Of a stretch of 32,000 bases of DNA, positions 16,877-27,531 are shown one piece after another. The stretch is from Candidatus Saccharimonadota bacterium (GTDB taxonomy: Bacteria; Patescibacteriota; Gracilibacteria; BD1-5; UBA6164): contig OY782392.1 in NCBI GenBank assembly GCA_963677765.1, forward strand, positions 450,001 to 482,000, given 5' to 3'. The notes under the pieces are model-generated. The model saw only the letters and a list, made by a program, of their open reading frames with translations, had not been told where the DNA came from and did not search any database. Position 1 is the stretch's first letter. Every line of letters begins with the position of its first letter. The translations under genes and the position numbers were made by a program.

Positions 16877-17758
16877 CTATCTAAGATATCTTTTTGAAGA
16901 AAAGAATCAACTAAGTCATCATATAACTATAAATAATAGTAATTCAAAAAATAAAACCCCAAAACTAAAATTAAAAGAATATATATGACCAAACATTCAA
17001 TTCAAATGATTAAGCATTATACTAAATAATATAAAATTTAGTATAAATGATATTATAGAAAATATAATTCATTGCATAACAAAAGGTCAATATATAAATA
17101 TATTTGAACCTCAAACTAATTGAGTTATATATATTTCATCTCTATAATAAAATATAAAATTTGATATAACACTATATATAATAACAGCTATAGAGAAAAC
17201 AAATATAAATATGATAATGTTTAATCATAGTTTTAATATATCTAAAACATTAGTTATATCTTCTATTTTTTGATATTGAGTTGAATAATTAGCAAAATAG
17301 TCTTCTTTTGTTTCATCATTTGCCAACAAAAACATTCTAGATTGTATTAAGTTATTTACTCTATCATAATCTTCCAAATTTATATTTGATAAAGCTATAG
17401 TATCAGGTAAAGGATTATTTCTTTCTAGTATTTTTACCAAATTAGGTTCTTTAGCTCTTATTTCAGTTAATATATCGTCTTTTGTTTTATATTCCGAAAC
17501 TATTGATGAATTTATATCTCCTATATCTCTAATAAGATCTGAAACCTCTAGAGAGTTTCTTGAGTATTCATCACTCAAATATAATGATATAGTTAATTTA
17601 GAATTTATAGAATCAATAAGTTTATAACTAATATCATCTAGTATTACTAATATATTTATAAAAAACATTAACAAAGTCAAAACCATAACAGAAGATATAC
17701 TCAAAAATTTATTTCTGAATATATTTTTTAGTGAGTATTTTGTAATACGTTCAAACAT
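16877..17758 (-). CDS. ftsX: Cell-division ABC-transporter permease-like protein FtsX (293 aa)
   Basis: The track ORF 17225..17758 (177 aa: N-terminal TM plus periplasmic domain) continues through TGA=Gly into the permease domain ...EIYITQLVGGSNIFIYGPFVMQGIIFSIISF...IGGLSGFFSSKRYLR, ending at TAG (comp. 16877-16879). This matches the FtsX motif EIxIxxLVGAxxxFIxxPF. Confidence 0.8.
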
Positions 17759-17843
17759 CTTTAAATACTAATTATTAATAACTTTTTTTAGTTTATATAT
17801 TTAAATTTTTTTTGCAAACTTAATAAATTCAATCACAAATCTA

Positions 17844-17871
17844 TTGACAAAAAAATAAATTATGCTAGATT
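17844..17871 (+). promoter_or_regulatory. Near-consensus sigma70 promoter with extended -10
   Basis: TTGACA (17844-17849), a 16-nt spacer, then TGcTAGATT (-10 TAGATT at 17866-17871). It lies about 70 nt upstream of the ATG at 17939. Confidence 0.5.
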
Positions 17872-17887
17872 AATAAAACTTAAGATT

Positions 17888-17908
17888 TTGTAACTCTGCA
17901 GATTACAA
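17888..17908 (+). promoter_or_regulatory. 21-bp near-palindrome in the predicted 5' UTR (candidate operator or RNA hairpin)
   Basis: TTGTAA c TCTGCAGA TTACAA has complementary outer arms and an inner 8-bp perfect palindrome. It sits between the promoter and the ribosome-binding site of the 190-aa gene. Confidence 0.35.
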
Positions 17909-17927
17909 GTTTTAAGAAAAAATAAAA

Positions 17928-17933
17928 AAGGAT
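17928..17933 (+). promoter_or_regulatory. Shine-Dalgarno sequence
   Basis: aaAAGGAtggataATG: an AAGGA core with about 6-nt spacing to the ATG at 17939. I saw no comparable purine-rich SD upstream of any other gene start I inspected in this window. Confidence 0.5.
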
Positions 17934-17938
17934 GGATA

Positions 17939-18511
17939 ATGCATAAAGCAATCTCTACCAACAAAGCAAGAAAAGAACTTGCAGGTATTTTTGGAATTAA
18001 GAACTGGAAAAAAGTAAGTAAAAAAGCTGTTGAAAAATATTTCAACCCTACTGAATTTTTCGGAGAAACACAATATTGGGAAAAGAAAAATAATTTTGTA
18101 TTATTAATTGAAAAATCTTTAAAAAATTTCAAATTAAAACTTACAAAAAATGAAGCAATAGAAACATTAAAAGAACTAGGCTTAACATCAAACGTAGATT
18201 TAAATCTATACTTTGATAAATCTGGTGAAAATTTTTTCACAAAAAAATATGATTTTGATAATCTATTTGAATTAAGAACTTTTGTCAAAGAAAGAATTAA
18301 GTCAAAAGTAAAAAAATACTATGGAAAAAGTTTTGAAGAAATAATTCCACAAGAACAAAAAAGATTAGAAATATACAAAAAAGCTTGGGAATTAAGAAAA
18401 TTAAATGGATCTAAGCTTGCAAACAATACTGTTGTTGAGTTTCTTATAAAAGAAATTGGTCACTGGAGTCCTAAAAATAAAGGACATAATTTATGCAAAA
18501 GAGCCTCATAA
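17939..18511 (+). CDS. Lys-rich basic 190-aa protein of unknown function, with no TGA codon (possible HTH-like segments)
   Basis: The ORF reads identically under codes 11 and 25. All 9 Gly codons are GGN and all 4 Trp codons are TGG. It has its own promoter, SD and terminator. Segments ARKELAGIFGIKNWKKV and SKLANNTVVEFLIKEIG look HTH-like by eye only. Confidence 0.65.
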   Translation: MHKAISTNKARKELAGIFGIKNWKKVSKKAVEKYFNPTEFFGETQYWEKKNNFVLLIEKSLKNFKLKLTKNEAIETLKELGLTSNVDLNLYFDKSGENFFTKKYDFDNLFELRTFVKERIKSKVKKYYGKSFEEIIPQEQKRLEIYKKAWELRKLNGSKLANNTVVEFLIKEIGHWSPKNKGHNLCKRAS

Positions 18512-18530
18512 AAAGAGGTTCTTTATTTTT
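18499..18530 (+). terminator. Rho-independent terminator overlapping the stop codon
   Basis: aagagcctc (18499-18507) / gaggttctt (18515-18523), 9 bp with one G-U pair, followed by tattttt. Confidence 0.55.
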
Positions 18531-18564
18531 GGAAAAAAATTAAGTAAAAATAAAGTTTTAATTT

Positions 18565-18593
18565 TTGATTTAAATTTTTAAATATGTTAAAAT
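18565..18593 (+). promoter_or_regulatory. Candidate promoter for the 910-aa gene
   Basis: TTGATT (18565-18570), a 17-nt spacer, then TGtTAAAAT (-10 at 18588-18593), 34 nt upstream of the ATG at 18627. Confidence 0.45.
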
Positions 18594-18626: not shown

Positions 18627-21359
18627 ATGAGAAATAATCCTGAATTTAATAGTTTTCAAGAAGCAAGAGAAAAAGATTTAAGTTTAAGAGAGATAAAAGA
18701 ATCAATAAAAAAACTTTCTATAGAACAAAGACAACAATTGTCGCATGAGATAAATAGACAAATAATATCAGAACTTCATAAATGAATGGAGGTTAAAAGA
18801 TGAGATGAATTAAATTTTTTGAAAGCTTTAACTCTAGAATGAAATAGAATAACATGGACAAGTCAAAGAGAAGCTGATACAATTCATCCATGAGACATAA
18901 TAAAAATAGAATGAGATAATATATTGAAAAATTGAAATTCTATATGAAAAGTTGAATGATTCAAAATAGAAGAAAATCCTCAAAGTCAAGAAAACACAAC
19001 AATAGAAGCAAATAATCAATCTAATAACAATCAAGAAACAGAAAGTCAATCTCAATCAAGCCAAGAAACAAATTCATCAGAAAATTTAACAGTACAACAA
19101 CAAGAACAAACTGTAAATCAAGAAAATTGAACTAACCCAACTATAACTGAAACAATAACTCAATGAGCAACTGATGTAAGAGATGATTTTCAAGAAATTT
19201 TTGATAATCTAACTTGAGCTAATCTTTCTGAAGAAGAAAGACTAGATGTAAGAGCATATTCTCAAGATTGAAAATATTATATAATCTGAGAGAACTGAGA
19301 ACCTGTATTATATAGTTCATTATGATTAAATGAAAACTTTAGAGAATCTATAGAAACCATATGAGAATCAAATAAAAAAATATGAAATTTTGAGCTTATA
19401 ATTTCTGCTCTTGTAAACTCAGAAGAAGATAAATACAAAAATATAAAAGAAGAATTTAATAATAAAATACAAGACTTAGACATATCATCTATGGATTCTA
19501 TTAACAGTCTATTATTATGGATAGATGAAAAAAATAATGAAATAACTGATTGAGAACCAGTAAACTTAAACGATAAACTAGAAGTTATAAGCTTTATAAG
19601 AGACTTAGATAGTAATTGAGCAAATAATTTACTAGTTAATGAATTATTTAATTTAACAAATATAAGTGAAGAAGATTTATATGCTTTTATAGACAACCCA
19701 TCTAATAATGCTGAAAATATTAGAACTTTATTATGAGAAGAAAAATATAGAGAAGTAAGAGAAAAAATAAGAGAGAAAAAAACTCAAGCAGATAATCATT
19801 TTGATGACAATAAAGACTTATTTATAAAACAGCTTATAGAAAAAAATTGAATGGATATTAATCAAGCCACTGAATTAGTTGAACAACAATATAAACAGTC
19901 TATAATAGATAGTTTTGTATGAAGTTACGCTAGAAATGAAATATTGCTTTCTTATGTTGAATGATTATCAGAAACATGAAACTGGCATTGATATAAATGA
20001 GAAAACAAATTAATGGAAATGTTTTCAGATATACAATGAATAGGTTATTTAGATGCTAGAGATAGTACTTTGGCTTCAATTGCATTTTGGTCAAAAGAAG
20101 GTTTTTATATATTAGGGACTCAAATAATAGCAATCGCAGCTTGAGCTGTAACTATGTGAGCTGGTTATGTATGAGTTAATGCTGCTGTTTGGTGAACAAG
20201 ATGATATAGATGAATAAGAGCATTACAAACGGCTAGTAACTTTGCAAATTCTTGAACTAAAATGGCAAGATTAGCACAAGTATGAAGATGGTGAGCTATG
20301 AGTACTGTATGATGAGCTAGCTTTTATACTTGATATGCTTGAGTTCAATCTATAGCAGAATGAGAAAATATGTATTCATGGGAAGGTTTATGAGAGTCTA
20401 TATTGTACACATGAGCATTTAGAGCTTTATCATCTATACCATGATTAAGAATAGACCCTAGCAAACCACTAAGTCAACAAAAATTAAAACTAGCAATTGC
20501 TACACCTTTGGATGCAATAGCATTCTCTTCTATATGATTAACTTTGGAATGAGTAATATTAGAACCAGGTGAATGGAATGCAGAACTAATAATGCAAGCA
20601 ATAGTTATGGCTGCAATATTTAGAACATGATGAGCTACTCTACAAAGAATGAAATTTAAAACAAATTGAAACAATGTAGAAATACTAGAATGAGCATCTA
20701 GCACTCCAATAAGATTCTTCAGACATAGTCAAACATGAAAAACATATACTAGAACTCTAGACTGAAAATTCCGTAATGAAAATTGAAGAGTAGTAAGTAA
20801 TTTAAAAGTAGATAATTTAGTTGAAGTTCAAGTAAATGAACAAGTAAGAAGATCAACTATGGATAGAATAAGAACAAGTTCTAGAGAATCTATTTCAAAT
20901 GCTTGAGAAAGAATTAGATGATCTCTATGAAAAATAAATGAAAGTGAATTGATATCATGAGCAGTTCAATGATTAAATCATAGAAGAAAAGTTTTATTTG
21001 AAAAAGCATTAAATTGATTAAAAAATAAATGAATAAATACTGTTACATGAACCAAAAATTTCTTGGCAAATTTAACATATAGAGGTTTTTGAGAATGATG
21101 ACCTGCTTTTAGAAATTGGGTTTTTTATACATGATGAACTATATATAGTTCATGGGAAGAATTAAACACACTATTTGACGCTTTAAATAATAAAGATGAC
21201 ACAATATGGAAATTAGAGCATATTGATGAAGTATGAGAAATAATACTTAACTTAACTTTATTTAAAAGTCTATGATTAATCCGTGCATCAGCTTATACAT
21301 GGGCAATAGAAAAACTTTTCTGAGATGCAGAAACTTTAGAACAAGAAACTACTGAATAA
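18627..21359 (+). CDS. Orphan large protein (910 aa): charged/coiled-coil N-terminal half, Q/N/S/E-rich low-complexity tract, Gly-rich multi-TM core, basic C-terminal region
   Basis: ATG 18627 to TAA 21357-21359 is open under code 25 with dozens of in-frame TGA and no TAA/TAG (I checked it codon by codon). The low-complexity tract lies at about 18969-19126. The hydrophobic Gly-rich core is FYILGTQIIAIAAGAVTMGAGYVGVNAAVWG...GRWGAMSTVGGASFYTGYAGV...ELIMQAIVMAAIF. Four track ORFs on the minus strand here are antisense artefacts. Confidence 0.7.
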
Positions 21360-21374
21360 ATCAGTAGTTTTTTT
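21346..21374 (+). terminator. Rho-independent terminator
   Basis: aaactactga (21346-21355), loop ataaa, tcagtagttt (21361-21370), then a T-run. Confidence 0.6.
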
Positions 21375-21432
21375 GTGTTAATGATTAAATTATGATAAAA
21401 TAATTATAAATTATATATATAATAAAAACAAA

Positions 21433-24162
21433 ATGCAACTAAGTAATAGACCTAGTAATAACCCTAATTCAAATACAGAAGAAATAAAATTATGAAACTT
21501 GGAGCAAAATACTTTTACTCAAGAAGAAATAGAAGAATACAAAGAAGTATTATTAAATAGAGAACAAGCTGAGAGAGTTAGACAATGAAGAATAACAATA
21601 GAAGAAATATCTAGACTAGCAAGAGAGCAACTTAAATTAAATATGGAATCTGAAAGATCTGTTGAACAAAGTCAATTAAGATGAAGAGAAATAAATAGAG
21701 AATGAAACGAAAGCCAAGAAATTGATAGAGAAGATGCTGATAATACATTATCTAGCCTTAATGAAACCGTTCAAAATGCATGAGAACAAGTAAGAGAAAA
21801 AGCTAGTGAAATAAAAGAAAATATAGCAAAAGTAGAATGAGCTTCTGGTATTTTAAACTGGTTAGAACAAGCTAAAGAGAAATGATGAATAATGTGATTT
21901 ATAGCAAGTATAATTCTTTGAATAGCTGGGGTTTTTTGATACAAAAAAGAAGTAAATGAACAAATTCAATCTGTAAGAGAAACTGTAGAGAATGGCTTAA
22001 ATCAAGAACAAATAAGCCAAACAAAACAAACTACAAAAGATACTATAAATCAATCTCTATGAGAATATATAACAAATGAAAATAGAGAAAGATTAAATAG
22101 CGCTATAGATTGATTATCAGAAGAACAAATAAGAAGATTATATCACTCTATAGAGTCATGAGAATTTTGAATAGATGATATAGAAGATATAGCTCCAAGT
22201 ATATTTTTAGAAGTATTAAACGAAGCCCAATTAGAACAAATAAAACAAAATATAGAAACAACTATTATAGAAAATCTATCTAAAACAATAAAAGAGGAAT
22301 ACTGAATTGATGTAGAGTTAAATCCAGAGAAAAAAACTGAATTAATAAACTTAGTAAGAGAGAATCTAAGATTAAGTGATGATAGAATAATGGAAATAAA
22401 AGAAATAGTAAAAAAAGAAGAGTTCAGATACAAAGATTTATCTGAAATATGAGGTGAAACAATTATAAATGGTTTAAGCATAATGTTATGACTTATATCT
22501 AGATGAATAGTTCCTCTTTCTAACTTTACTTTTAGTTTTGTAGAAGCTGGTTGAAAAATAATAGCTATTTGAGCTTGAGCATTATGAATAAACGAAAATA
22601 TAACATTTGAAAATTTTCATAATCAACTTGAAAAAATGAGTGATTCAGAAAGAGCAATGTTTGTATGAATACTTTACAGAAAATGATGATTATTCCTATG
22701 ATTGGTATCAAGTATGATGGAGCATGCTAGTAAATTTACAATATCATCAATTACTAATACTACAGTATCATGAATAGAACTAGCTTGAACATCTTTAACT
22801 AACAACTTTTCTGCACAAGCAGAAAATATTGATAAAATAGCAAGAACAATTAATCCTTCCAATTTGACTGACCATAAATGAGTTTTAAATGAAGCAATAA
22901 GAAACTTAGATAAAGTTAGAGAAAATTATAAAATGATGGATCTAATACAACAAGTGGATTGAAACTTAGATGATGCATCTAAATTATCACAACTAAAATG
23001 ACTTTTATCTACAAATAATATAGATATTCCTAACTGAACTAATAGTTTCGATGATTTAATAAGAGCTCTTTGAGAAAAAAACAATATAGTTACATCTCTA
23101 AATAATAGATGATCTATATCATCTAGCCTAGGTTTTTGAGCAAGTGCCGACTTAAATAGATTAAATAGACAACTAGAAAGAATATCTAGTTCTCAAAAAA
23201 GAATGTTTAATCCAAACTTTTTATTGAATTGATTTTCTAGAATGAGAGAAGCTATAAATATAGCAGAAGTTTCTAGAATGTGAGACAGATTAGCTTTTCA
23301 TTTTGATAGTCCAAGTCAAGCAAGAGATTGATTAAGAAGATTAAATACACTAGCTAATAGATTTCCAGAATTATTAAAATGAGCAATAGATAAAGCTCCA
23401 ATAATAATGGTTGCATGATTGGCTGCAAACGATGATAAACCATTTTTTGAATCTCTAAAAGATCAATTACCTACACTTATACCTATTGTATGACCTATAT
23501 TGATACTTAGTGACTCATGATGGTCATGGTCAGATTGATTTCCTAAGCCTATTGATCCATTAAATGTATGAATATGAGCTGCCTTATTAACTATAGATTG
23601 AGCAATATTATGAAAAGAGATTTACACTTGATGAGCTAGAGCATGAGTATGATATATATTAAAGCCTTTTAGAGATATATACTCTATGTGAAGATGAACT
23701 TTAGATATGTGATATTCTGTTTCTAGAACTATAGCAAGATGAAATCCTTCTGCTATGTGAAATATAATAAAAGAATGAGCTAGAAGAGTAAAAAATATAC
23801 CTGGTTGATCTAGAGTAAGAGCATTAGCATTAATTTGAGCTGTTTGATATGTTTGAGTAAACTATTTATTAGAAGGTTGAGAACAAATAGAATGAATAGA
23901 AGAATTAATGGTAAATTGAAAAGTAGATAGAGAAAGAGTAAGTCAAGTTGCTTGAGAACTTAGCGATTGACAAAAAGAAGAAGCATTAAAAGCTATAATT
24001 CAAGAAGAATGATTAGAATGATTAGAAATAAAAGTAATAGCAAATAGAATTTCTATAGTATCAAATAACCCTAGTATAAAAGCTGATTGGTTTATTGATA
24101 GTGAATTATTTGAATTATTTAAACTAGATTCAGACTATAGATTTGTTTATGAACAAGCATAA
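21433..24162 (+). CDS. Orphan large protein (909 aa): coiled-coil/charged regions interspersed with Gly-rich TM segments; probable distant paralogue of the 910-aa neighbour
   Basis: ATG 21433 to TAA 24160-24162 is open under code 25 (checked codon by codon). TM-like segments are GGIMGFIASIILGIAGVFGY, GGKIIAIGAGALGI, APIIMVAGLAAN, LPTLIPIVGPILILS and RALALIGAVGYVGVNYLL. It shares the hexapeptide GYVGVN (23845-23862) with the upstream protein (20163-20180). Confidence 0.7.
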
Positions 24163-26520: not shown

Positions 26521-27531
26521 TTAAGAAATATCGACTATTTCTATATCAAATTTAAGTGTTTTTCCTGCTAATTTATGATTTGTATCAATAACTACATTTT
26601 CATCAGTAACATCAATTATAGTTAATGGTCAAAATTGAGTTGGTAAAACATTTCAAGCTTTTAATTCAATACCATTATCTTCAAAAGTTTTAAGATCAAG
26701 TCTAGGAACTACTTGTCTATTTTCTTCACTATATTCTCAATATGCTTCTGATGGAGCTAAAGTTATAGATTTTTTTTCTCATATAGACATTCCTAATACA
26801 GCTTTATCAAAACCAGGAATCATTTGACCTGATCAAGCTACAAACTCTAAAGCATCTCATCTATCATAACTAGAGTCAAATTTTTCTCAATCCTCAAAAG
26901 TTCAAGTATAGTGAACTTTTACTATTGAATCTATTCATATTTTCATAGATTTTTTAGCCTCTTTTTTTGAATCAAGAAAACTTTCATAAGCTTTTAAAGC
27001 AGCTTCTTTATCAAAAACATAATCCTTAAAACTTGTTCAGTTATATTCTTTTATTTTTACTGAGATAATCTTTACTTCTTTTTCTGGTCTATCACTAGAA
27101 TCAGTTTTTACTTTTGATAATTTATCAACATTATCAACTCAATCAACTACTTCTCAAAAAACAGAATGTTTATCATCTAAGTAATTATTATCTGCAACAT
27201 TTATAAAAAATTGACTTCAATTTGTGTTTGGTCAAGCATTTGCCATAGATATAGTATATTTGAAGTTTCTTAATTCAGGATGAAATTCATCAACAAATTT
27301 TTCTCAATAAATACTAGTTCCTCACATTCATGTACCATCTGGATCTCATCATTGAATCATAAATCATTTTATTATTCTATGAAAAATAACTCAATCATAA
27401 TATCAACTAGTAGCTAAACCTATAAAATTATTCACAGTAATAGGAGCTAAATCTTTTTCTAACAATATATTTATAACTCAAGAATTAGTTTTAACTTCAG
27501 CTATAACATCTCATTTTTCATATTTATACAT
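26521..27531 (-). CDS. Dual-family peptidyl-prolyl isomerase: N-terminal cyclophilin fused to C-terminal FKBP (SlyD-like) domain (336 aa)
   Basis: Minus strand under code 25. Cyclophilin part: [48 protein letters not shown]...ISMANAGPNTNGSQFFI...HSVFGEVVDG. FKBP part: [51 protein letters not shown]...HKLAGKTLKFDIEIVDIS. Confidence 0.85.

Follow-up and report, generated by a model that had tools for sequence, protein, structure and literature searches.

Why should a gene contain no UGA codon in a bacterium that uses this codon for most of its glycine residues? The question is raised by a 190-codon gene in the window analyzed here, a stretch of 32,000 nucleotides (positions 450001-482000) from a single-contig genome of 1,048,296 bp and 23.2% GC. 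The gene lies between ftsX and two genes coding for giant proteins, in a cassette that has a promoter, a structured leader, a Shine-Dalgarno (SD) sequence and a terminator of its own. With moderate confidence, the cassette is considered an autonomous single-gene unit encoding a lineage-restricted, basic, winged-helix-like protein, probably nucleic-acid-binding and probably self-regulating, whose UGA-free state has been selected.

Long open frames appear in the window only when TGA is treated as sense rather than stop, and TGA represents 77% of the glycine codons in the 869 open reading frames (ORFs) of at least 100 amino acids found in the whole genome. A single release factor with a PCRF domain is encoded, which indicates that RF2 is absent, and glycine is served by two tRNA genes, one with the anticodon UCC and the other with UCA. 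Taken together, the open frames, the share of TGA among glycine codons, the absence of RF2 and the tRNA-Gly(UCA) assign the genome to genetic code 25, of the Gracilibacteria/Absconditabacteria type. The 3' end of the 16S rRNA is ...GGACUAUCUCCUUAU and CUCCUU is kept in both 16S copies, so an anti-SD sequence able to pair with AAGGA(G) exists.

Glycine codons and expression signals of the cassette gene

The cassette comprises the following features.

17823-18560, + strand: cassette, approximate extent; present here, absent from sister species
17844-17871, + strand: sigma-70-type promoter, with the -35 TTGACA at 17844-17849, a 16-nt spacer and the extended -10 TGc-TAGATT at 17863-17871
17879-17916, + strand: leader hairpin/palindrome, a 15-bp imperfect stem at the 5' end of the leader
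17928-17936, + strand: SD sequence AAGGAUGGA, with the AAGGA core at 17928-17932, 6 nt ahead of the AUG
17939-18511, + strand: coding sequence of 190 aa with a TAA stop and no TGA
18498-18533, + strand: intrinsic terminator, a hairpin at 18498-18524 followed by a T-run

The nine glycine codons of the ORF at 17939-18511 are 3 GGT, 5 GGA and 1 GGC. If TGA were used at the bulk rate of the genome, nine glycine codons without any TGA would have a probability of about 9e-7, and at the rate of the ribosomal-protein and elongation-factor genes this probability is 0.25. TGA provides 8/12 glycine codons in ftsX, 69/76 and 69/78 in the two giants of about 910 aa, 3/38 in tuf and 0/4 in rpsJ. These counts agree with a preliminary description of the window, in which the TGA-free ORF with only GGN glycine codons, the heavy use of TGA in ftsX and the giants, and its avoidance in tuf and rpsJ had been pointed out; the promoter, the palindrome at 17888-17908, the AAGGA placed 6 nt from the ATG and the terminator described there were also all present. 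The terminator stem has 10 bp, including 4 G-C pairs, with the TAA stop codon inside the loop. A TTGACA-N16-18-TAnnnT promoter was found within 200 nt upstream of only 25 of the 869 genes, and the terminator scan gave 4 sites per 3 kb when 0.1 were expected.

The cassette gene is a member of a genome-wide class of SD-led genes without in-frame UGA. With an SD defined as AAGGA, AGGAG or GGAGG at positions -20 to -4 from the start, 14 of the 869 genes (about 1.6%) were SD-bearing, 8 of these 14 were TGA-free, and the association of both traits gave a Fisher p = 4.7e-12. The 16 TGA-free genes of the genome split cleanly into two groups of eight when ranked by a codon score for which the ribosomal-protein and elongation-factor genes served as training set and glycine was left out. 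The first group (ndk, the genes for L7/L12, S10, L19, L22, EF-Ts and a STAS protein, and one other) occupies ranks 2-50 and has an SD in none of its members. All the genes of the second group have an SD and bulk-like ranks between 115 and 841, and they are the cassette gene, a dapD-like gene, those for a CDP-alcohol phosphatidyltransferase and a glucosaminidase, and four small orphans. A separate TTGAC(A/T) promoter precedes every member of this SD-led, TGA-free class, and a terminator is located ahead of several of them. The dapD-like gene (C1:191402-192445, outside the window) contains 41 glycine codons and no TGA behind an AAGGAGA SD, and its orthologues in genomes G003 (78% identity), G018 (63%), G047 and G004 (loci L030-L033) are also TGA-free. 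Full-text searches of the literature gave no description of a chromosomal class of SD-led, UGA-free genes in code-25 bacteria.

The SD of the cassette had been regarded in the preliminary description as the only clear one of the window, which did not hold, since a 336-aa gene at 26521-27531 (- strand) also has AAGGA about 10 nt ahead of its start. This gene uses TGA for 24 of its 32 glycine residues, so an SD-like string alone is no sign of TGA avoidance.

It is extremely improbable that a short, glycine-poor ORF just happens to be TGA-free, with fortuitous promoter- and SD-like strings in AT-rich DNA. Promoter-like strings are certainly common (34 per 3 kb, with 23 expected), and by chance alone the core of the leader palindrome, TTGTAA-N9-TTACAA, should turn up about once per genome. 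However, coincidence is contradicted by the bulk-rate probability given above, by the recurrence of the same set of features in relatives of the gene and in seven other genes of this genome, and by a dN/dS of 0.19 with respect to the relative L011 (dS about 1).

A very highly expressed native gene, encoding for example a nucleoid-associated protein, is an unlikely explanation as well. A slow tRNA-Gly(UCA) would then be disfavored, and promoter, hairpin and SD would maximize the output. The TGA share does drop as the expression-type codon score rises (r = -0.60 in this genome), as illustrated by tuf and by two S-layer-like genes of 913 and 1155 aa (C1:487530-490271 and C1:491824-495291, just outside the window), in which TGA represents 1/60 and 1/74 glycine codons, the most extreme expression-type avoidance among long genes. 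The share of C-ending two-fold codons in the cassette gene is 27% (97th percentile), equal to that of the highly expressed set, the lack of TGA has the probability of 0.25 already mentioned at the highly expressed rate, and the match of the promoter to the consensus is on par with the top 3% of the genes. However, the overall codon score of -0.061 (bulk mean -0.15, highly expressed mean +0.11) ranks only 115/869, the G-ending codons are bulk-like (6.7%, with 9.8% in the bulk and 2.1% in the highly expressed set), and the highly expressed genes of this genome have no SD sites.

Relatives of the cassette gene

Only one relative, with 73% identity, was found when 5.8 billion sequences were searched with the protein, and a search of 1.8 billion sequences gave nine representatives at E < 1e-3. 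Family matches were present in 7/204 genomes of the order and in 2/401 genomes sampled across the class, and the gene is missing from all three genomes of the same genus. The relatives share 24-73% identity and all belong to code-25 genomes of the same order. DNA was read for 12 of them, namely L006, L010, L011, L012, L014, L015, L017, L018, L027, L028, L029 and L016, the last one being treated apart; the representatives P0008 and P0010 were left out of this DNA-level reading. The other eleven relatives are located in low-GC contigs whose neighbor genes, where checkable, contain 2-35 in-frame TGAs each (17-35 in L006). Several of the genes were recovered by six-frame searches reading through stops, and others from assemblies in which the neighbors were called whole over many TGAs, so the TGA-free family is not an artefact of calling genes with code 11.

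The signals of the cassette recur throughout the family. The -35 hexamer TTGACA (once TTGACT) with a 16-17-nt spacer is located at the same place in all relatives, an inverted repeat is found early in every leader, and an SD-like site (AAGGATGGA, AAGGA, GGAGGA, AGGAG or AAGGAG) is always present, being weaker in L014/L028, L029 and L018. A GC-containing terminator hairpin follows every relative whose downstream sequence was examined.

The conserved bodies of the relatives contain 71 GGN glycine codons and no TGA, and at the four glycine positions common with L011 two codons have been switched among GGN and none to TGA. The family has TGA codons only within the last 7 codons. In L010, a gene of 152 codons, they are codons 146 and 150, and in L028 the only one is codon 142 of 142; in L028 the TGA is directly followed by TAG, and in L010 there is a TGA with a TAG 6 codons on. 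Consequently, TGA represents 3/4 glycine codons in the tails and 0/63 in the bodies (Fisher p = 8e-5). A TGA is found among the last 8 codons in 21% of the ordinary genes of this genome, so that the tails, with 3/4 TGA, are bulk-like and the bodies are not. By this distribution, UGA is missing solely from positions at which it would truncate the conserved part of the protein, and each family gene would give its conserved protein under either code. Selection seems to keep the conserved protein UGA-free and readable without the altered code, and across genera of this family the UGA-free state is apparently maintained by selection.

The preliminary description had considered, among other options, a gene that must be readable by a standard-code translation system, and a need for readability without UGA decoding has gained strength from relatives that are free of internal TGA at 24-73% identity and keep the SD. 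The contrary evidence it had named, code-25 orthologues with TGA glycine codons and without an SD, was not what the family presented; the opposite was seen, with TGA-free bodies and a retained SD.

The relatives also bear on high expression. L027, L029 and L010 have no expression-type codon bias and nevertheless lack internal TGA, TGA is free to occur in the C-terminal tails, and a gene present in only 7/204 genomes of the order and missing in the sisters would be odd for an abundant core protein. A cost in decoding speed should ignore the position of the codon and a risk of truncation or non-decoding should not; avoidance confined to the bodies is not predicted by the former. With the C-ending bias observed here and none in L027, L029 and L010, high expression may contribute in this genome but leaves the family unexplained. 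The situation resembles expression-linked codon bias in that the highly expressed genes of this genome are poor in TGA and share their C-ending preference with the cassette gene, but differs from it in that the SD-led class is bulk-like at other codons and the avoidance concerns bodies, not tails. The highly expressed native gene suggested in the preliminary description is thus weakened as an explanation and at most a partial one: the C-ending bias matches it, but the intermediate score, the lack of SD in highly expressed genes and the TGAs of the tails do not agree with it.

The cassette protein has 190 aa, a pI of 9.8 and 18% lysine, and three modules can be distinguished: an N domain (aa 1-64, winged-helix-like, with the motif STNKAR...YF...YWE.K), a middle part (aa 65-105) and the most conserved C domain (aa 106-180, with the motif R.KSKVKKYW..IP..R..Y..W.R...PN....L..GHW). 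Other family members consist of the C domain only (85-94 aa) or of N+C (141-162 aa); there is also a permuted form (P0003), and N-only mini-genes encode 57-61 aa. In P0003 (L006 10001-10561) the modules are arranged as middle-C-N, compared with N-middle-C in the window protein, which suggests that the three modules may fold and act independently. The N-only mini-genes, found in L017 (G006) at 1410-1700, L018 (G175) and L015 (G187), keep the TTGACA promoter (TTGACT in G187), an SD-like site, GGN-only glycine codons and a GC-rich terminator, and could be either minimal functional versions or well-preserved remnants.

The N-domain homologue L016 (G121:C2, 209-580; E = 6.7e-7) comes from a genome of the same order with 45% GC, for which an open-frame test on contig C1 indicates code 25. 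AAGGAG is located upstream of this ORF, whose first TGA is codon 108, just ahead of a GC-rich terminator hairpin, with the next TAA about 45 codons further. An ABC ATPase gene on the same 3.2-kb contig has its sole TGA 8 codons short of the stop. Either the L016 contig is foreign (code 11) or UGA terminates its ORFs.

It could also be imagined that UGA decoding in code-25 bacteria is undependable at times and that the small set of SD-led, UGA-free genes, including the cassette gene with its self-regulated winged-helix product, stays translatable as an "emergency" or anti-takeover regulon while the remaining proteome is blocked. This proposal is regarded as quite unlikely. Within it, tRNA-Gly(UCA) could be depleted or cleaved, a phage could supply a release factor that reads UGA, or UGA could still cause some termination, and the terminal TGAs of the relatives, including that of L016 before its hairpin, would mark sites where UGA still ends translation.

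Chromosomal position and origin

The cassette is flanked by ftsX (16877-17758) and the giants (18627-24162). The distance from ftsX to the first giant is 868 bp here, 175 bp in G003 and 156 bp in G002, the ftsX identity being 83% with G003 and 79% with G002. Homology with these sisters stops near TTTTTTTTGCAAA (about 17820) and restarts near TTTGAT (about 18562), so about 740 bp stand here in place of about 55-75 nt of unrelated spacer. The comparison of this site among sister genomes that the preliminary description had recommended showed the cassette to be absent in G002 and G003. No scar of the cassette was detectable in the sister genomes, any similarity being within AT-rich noise. The order ftsX, giant 1, giant 2 is kept in two sister species (L025 and L026), in which the giants have 923 and 889 aa and each is followed by a second long ORF.

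The identical 12-mers that had been described as bracketing the unit are real but not significant (2 copies with 0.57 expected, and 2 reached in 11/100 shuffles). Both are located in flanks common to the sister genomes, so they represent neither a target-site duplication nor an insertion footprint. An insertion sequence or transposon was discarded, as the cassette has a single ORF without Pfam match and its flanking 12-mers are native and not significant. The unit is monocistronic and bounded by its own promoter and terminator, and so does not correspond to a two-gene toxin-antitoxin system. No phage, integrase or transposase genes were found near the cassette.

In other genomes the family gene adjoins a polA-like 5'-3' exonuclease gene (L006, L010, L014 and L015) and is located upstream of an FAD/NAD oxidoreductase gene (L006, L011, L015, L027 and probably L029), six loci in all having an oxidoreductase gene in their vicinity, and in other genera its place is between the two genes; ClpB and PfkB genes are also among the neighbors of the relatives. 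This recurrent polA-like/oxidoreductase slot points to a long-standing chromosomal home, the cassette being at a new place in this species. An empty canonical site was sought here and discarded, because the oxidoreductase gene faces a different 957-aa gene and the locus has thus been rearranged. The cassette may have been either relocated or re-acquired from a relative. The synonymous divergence (pS) with respect to L011 was 0.54 for the cassette and 0.60 for a fragment of the neighboring oxidoreductase gene (a short alignment with an indel); a cassette ancestry more recent than that of the genomes was rejected, the two values being about equal.

The preliminary description had also considered a recent acquisition from a standard-code donor. 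In its broader form, a recent or recurrent import of code-11-compatible mobile DNA such as a phage or moron-like unit, with the SD and the lack of TGA as donor features, this origin has a low probability. It is favored by the insertion polymorphism that the cassette represents, by the sporadic and modular family (short, permuted and N-domain-only forms), by the raised GC content at third codon positions (GC3) of the ORF (0.152, with a genome mean of 0.10) and by weak fold matches of the protein to small phage helix-turn-helix (HTH), AlpA and Cox proteins. In addition, the TGA closely followed by TAG in two relatives reproduces the "backup stop" pattern of code-11-compatible phages (PMC10746230). 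However, searches of 50,697 phage records and 72,556 plasmid records gave no homologue, no close relative was detected among IMG/VR viral contigs, a search of genome contigs gave no relatives either, and PHROGs yielded no consistent match. Mobile-element genes nearby and a target-site duplication are lacking, the GC content and third-position composition are nearly host-like, and pS is similar to that of the housekeeping fragment. The relatives are chromosomal, all come from the same order and from code-25 genomes, and are frequently found in one syntenic position, so that a recent import from a standard-code donor is not supported.

The code-11-compatible phages predicted to infect Gracilibacteria/Absconditabacteria, which have no in-frame TGA and carry backup stops after a terminal TGA (Liu et al. 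2023, mBio, PMC10746230), are the nearest published parallel. The cassette family shares with them the lack of in-frame TGA and, in L028 and L010, a stop soon after a terminal TGA, but it is chromosomal and often syntenic, without phage genes nearby and without any phage homologue found. A broader phage host range is the published idea for code-11 compatibility (PMC10746230), and it is not obviously applicable to a chromosomal cassette gene.

Phage morons are autonomous promoter-ORF-terminator units. The cassette resembles them as a self-contained unit between two genes with presence/absence between close relatives, but it is located outside any prophage.

Leader, protein and significance of the UGA-free unit

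The core of the leader element consists of TTGTAA (17888-17893), the 9-nt spacer CTCTGCAGA, which contains CTGCAG, and TTACAA (17903-17908). The 15-bp stem at 17879-17916 begins about where transcription should start. The arms differ among relatives, being AAGCAA/TTGCTT in L014 and L028, GTGTAA/TTACAT in L029 and GAGTGA/TCACTC in L012 and L027, and each spacer has 9 nt with its own 6-bp palindrome; the leader hairpin of G006 and G175 has 10-bp arms. In a six-sequence alignment 100% of the cells were paired and 4/6 pairs were compensatory, a result unmatched by any shuffle or slide. Compared with L011, identity is about 87% over the 100 nt that precede the start and 65% at third codon positions. 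Covariation fits a DNA operator and an RNA hairpin alike, so both readings are kept, and the leader is a candidate mRNA-stabilizing 5' stem-loop and/or a candidate auto-operator. TTGTAA-N9-TTACAA is unique in the genome; a regulon based on this palindrome was dropped because of this single copy. The Rfam scan of the window detected only tRNAs and left the leader hairpin unmatched.

Some relatives have an additional element in the leader. In the long leaders of L014 (1405-1425) and L028 (60-82) a strong SD precedes a mini-ORF of two codons (AGGAGG-N6-ATG-GAT-TAA), upstream of the conserved CTGCAGATTGC hairpin, and similar AGGAGG or AGGGGG elements were found early in the leaders of L010 and L029.

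The full-length protein model (pLDDT 75.8) comprises two helix-helix-beta-hairpin modules and a three-helix C domain, and the N domain modeled alone (pLDDT 91.8, pTM 0.75) has the order helix-helix-beta-hairpin-helix. Its weak Foldseek matches were nearly all winged-helix (best E = 0.16, TM 0.47-0.52), including RosR, SmtB/ArsR, MarR, PadR, forkhead, AspA, TubR and a ROQ domain. According to these models the protein is considered, with low confidence, to be winged-helix-like and probably nucleic-acid-binding. The DNA-binding role that the preliminary description had put forward as possible is compatible with such a model. Small winged-helix repressors (ArsR/SmtB, MarR, PadR, RosR) and AlpA/Xis-type HTH proteins self-regulate through palindromic operators, and the cassette has in common with them the helix-helix-beta-hairpin N domain, a palindrome between promoter and start, and a small basic protein. 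It differs from them in the lack of significant similarity (TM not above 0.52, E of at least 0.16) and in having a separate helical C domain as its most conserved part. By its sequence distribution, the protein is an orphan, lineage-restricted to one order of the Gracilibacteria/Absconditabacteria-type lineage.

In the favored reading of a self-contained unit, transcription would start about 7 nt past the extended -10, and the mRNA would open with a stem-loop acting as a stabilizing 5' hairpin or, as DNA, as an operator for its own product. AAGGA would pair with CUCCUU at the 3' end of the 16S rRNA, something that hardly any other gene of this genome does, the ORF would use tRNA-Gly(UCC) alone and never tRNA-Gly(UCA), and the stop codon would be placed in the loop of the terminator hairpin.

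Several points weigh against this reading. The family members are interrelated, and their glycine codon counts are not independent. Foldseek searches of the full-length protein against PDB and BFVD and of the N domain against PDB gave nothing below E = 0.16, and Pfam, PHROGs, PADLOC and PDB sequences gave no consistent match for the protein and 10 family members; with no significant fold or sequence match, DNA binding is only a topological guess. The folding energy of the leader (-8.9 kcal/mol, z = -1.4) is by itself not significant, and the register of the alignment was picked by eye, which makes the covariation supportive but not decisive. The C-ending codon bias resembles that of highly expressed genes, so high expression may contribute here, and we know of no mechanism that makes UGA harmful in a cell without RF2.

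A rare strong SD is also known in the SD-poor Flavobacteriia, in which the gene rpsU, encoding bS21, has one and the anti-SD is normally sequestered. As in these bacteria, the genome described here has an intact anti-SD that is hardly used and few strong-SD genes, which implies a special translational status for them; unlike in these bacteria, its SD genes are non-ribosomal and exclude the reassigned codon. The SD-led, UGA-free genes thus use a mode of ribosome binding that the rest of the genome has dropped.

The cassette protein defines a new orphan protein family, and the cassette itself is a compact test object of about 700 bp that should be readable in standard-code bacteria and contains a candidate operator or hairpin. 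Stop-codon reassignment is usually viewed as all-or-none per cell, and the cassette points to chromosomal genes selected to be readable under both codes. If this is true, the use of UGA for glycine would have a hidden, position-dependent cost, or some genes of these bacteria would sometimes be translated under other rules, for instance when phages attack, during stress or inside another cell.

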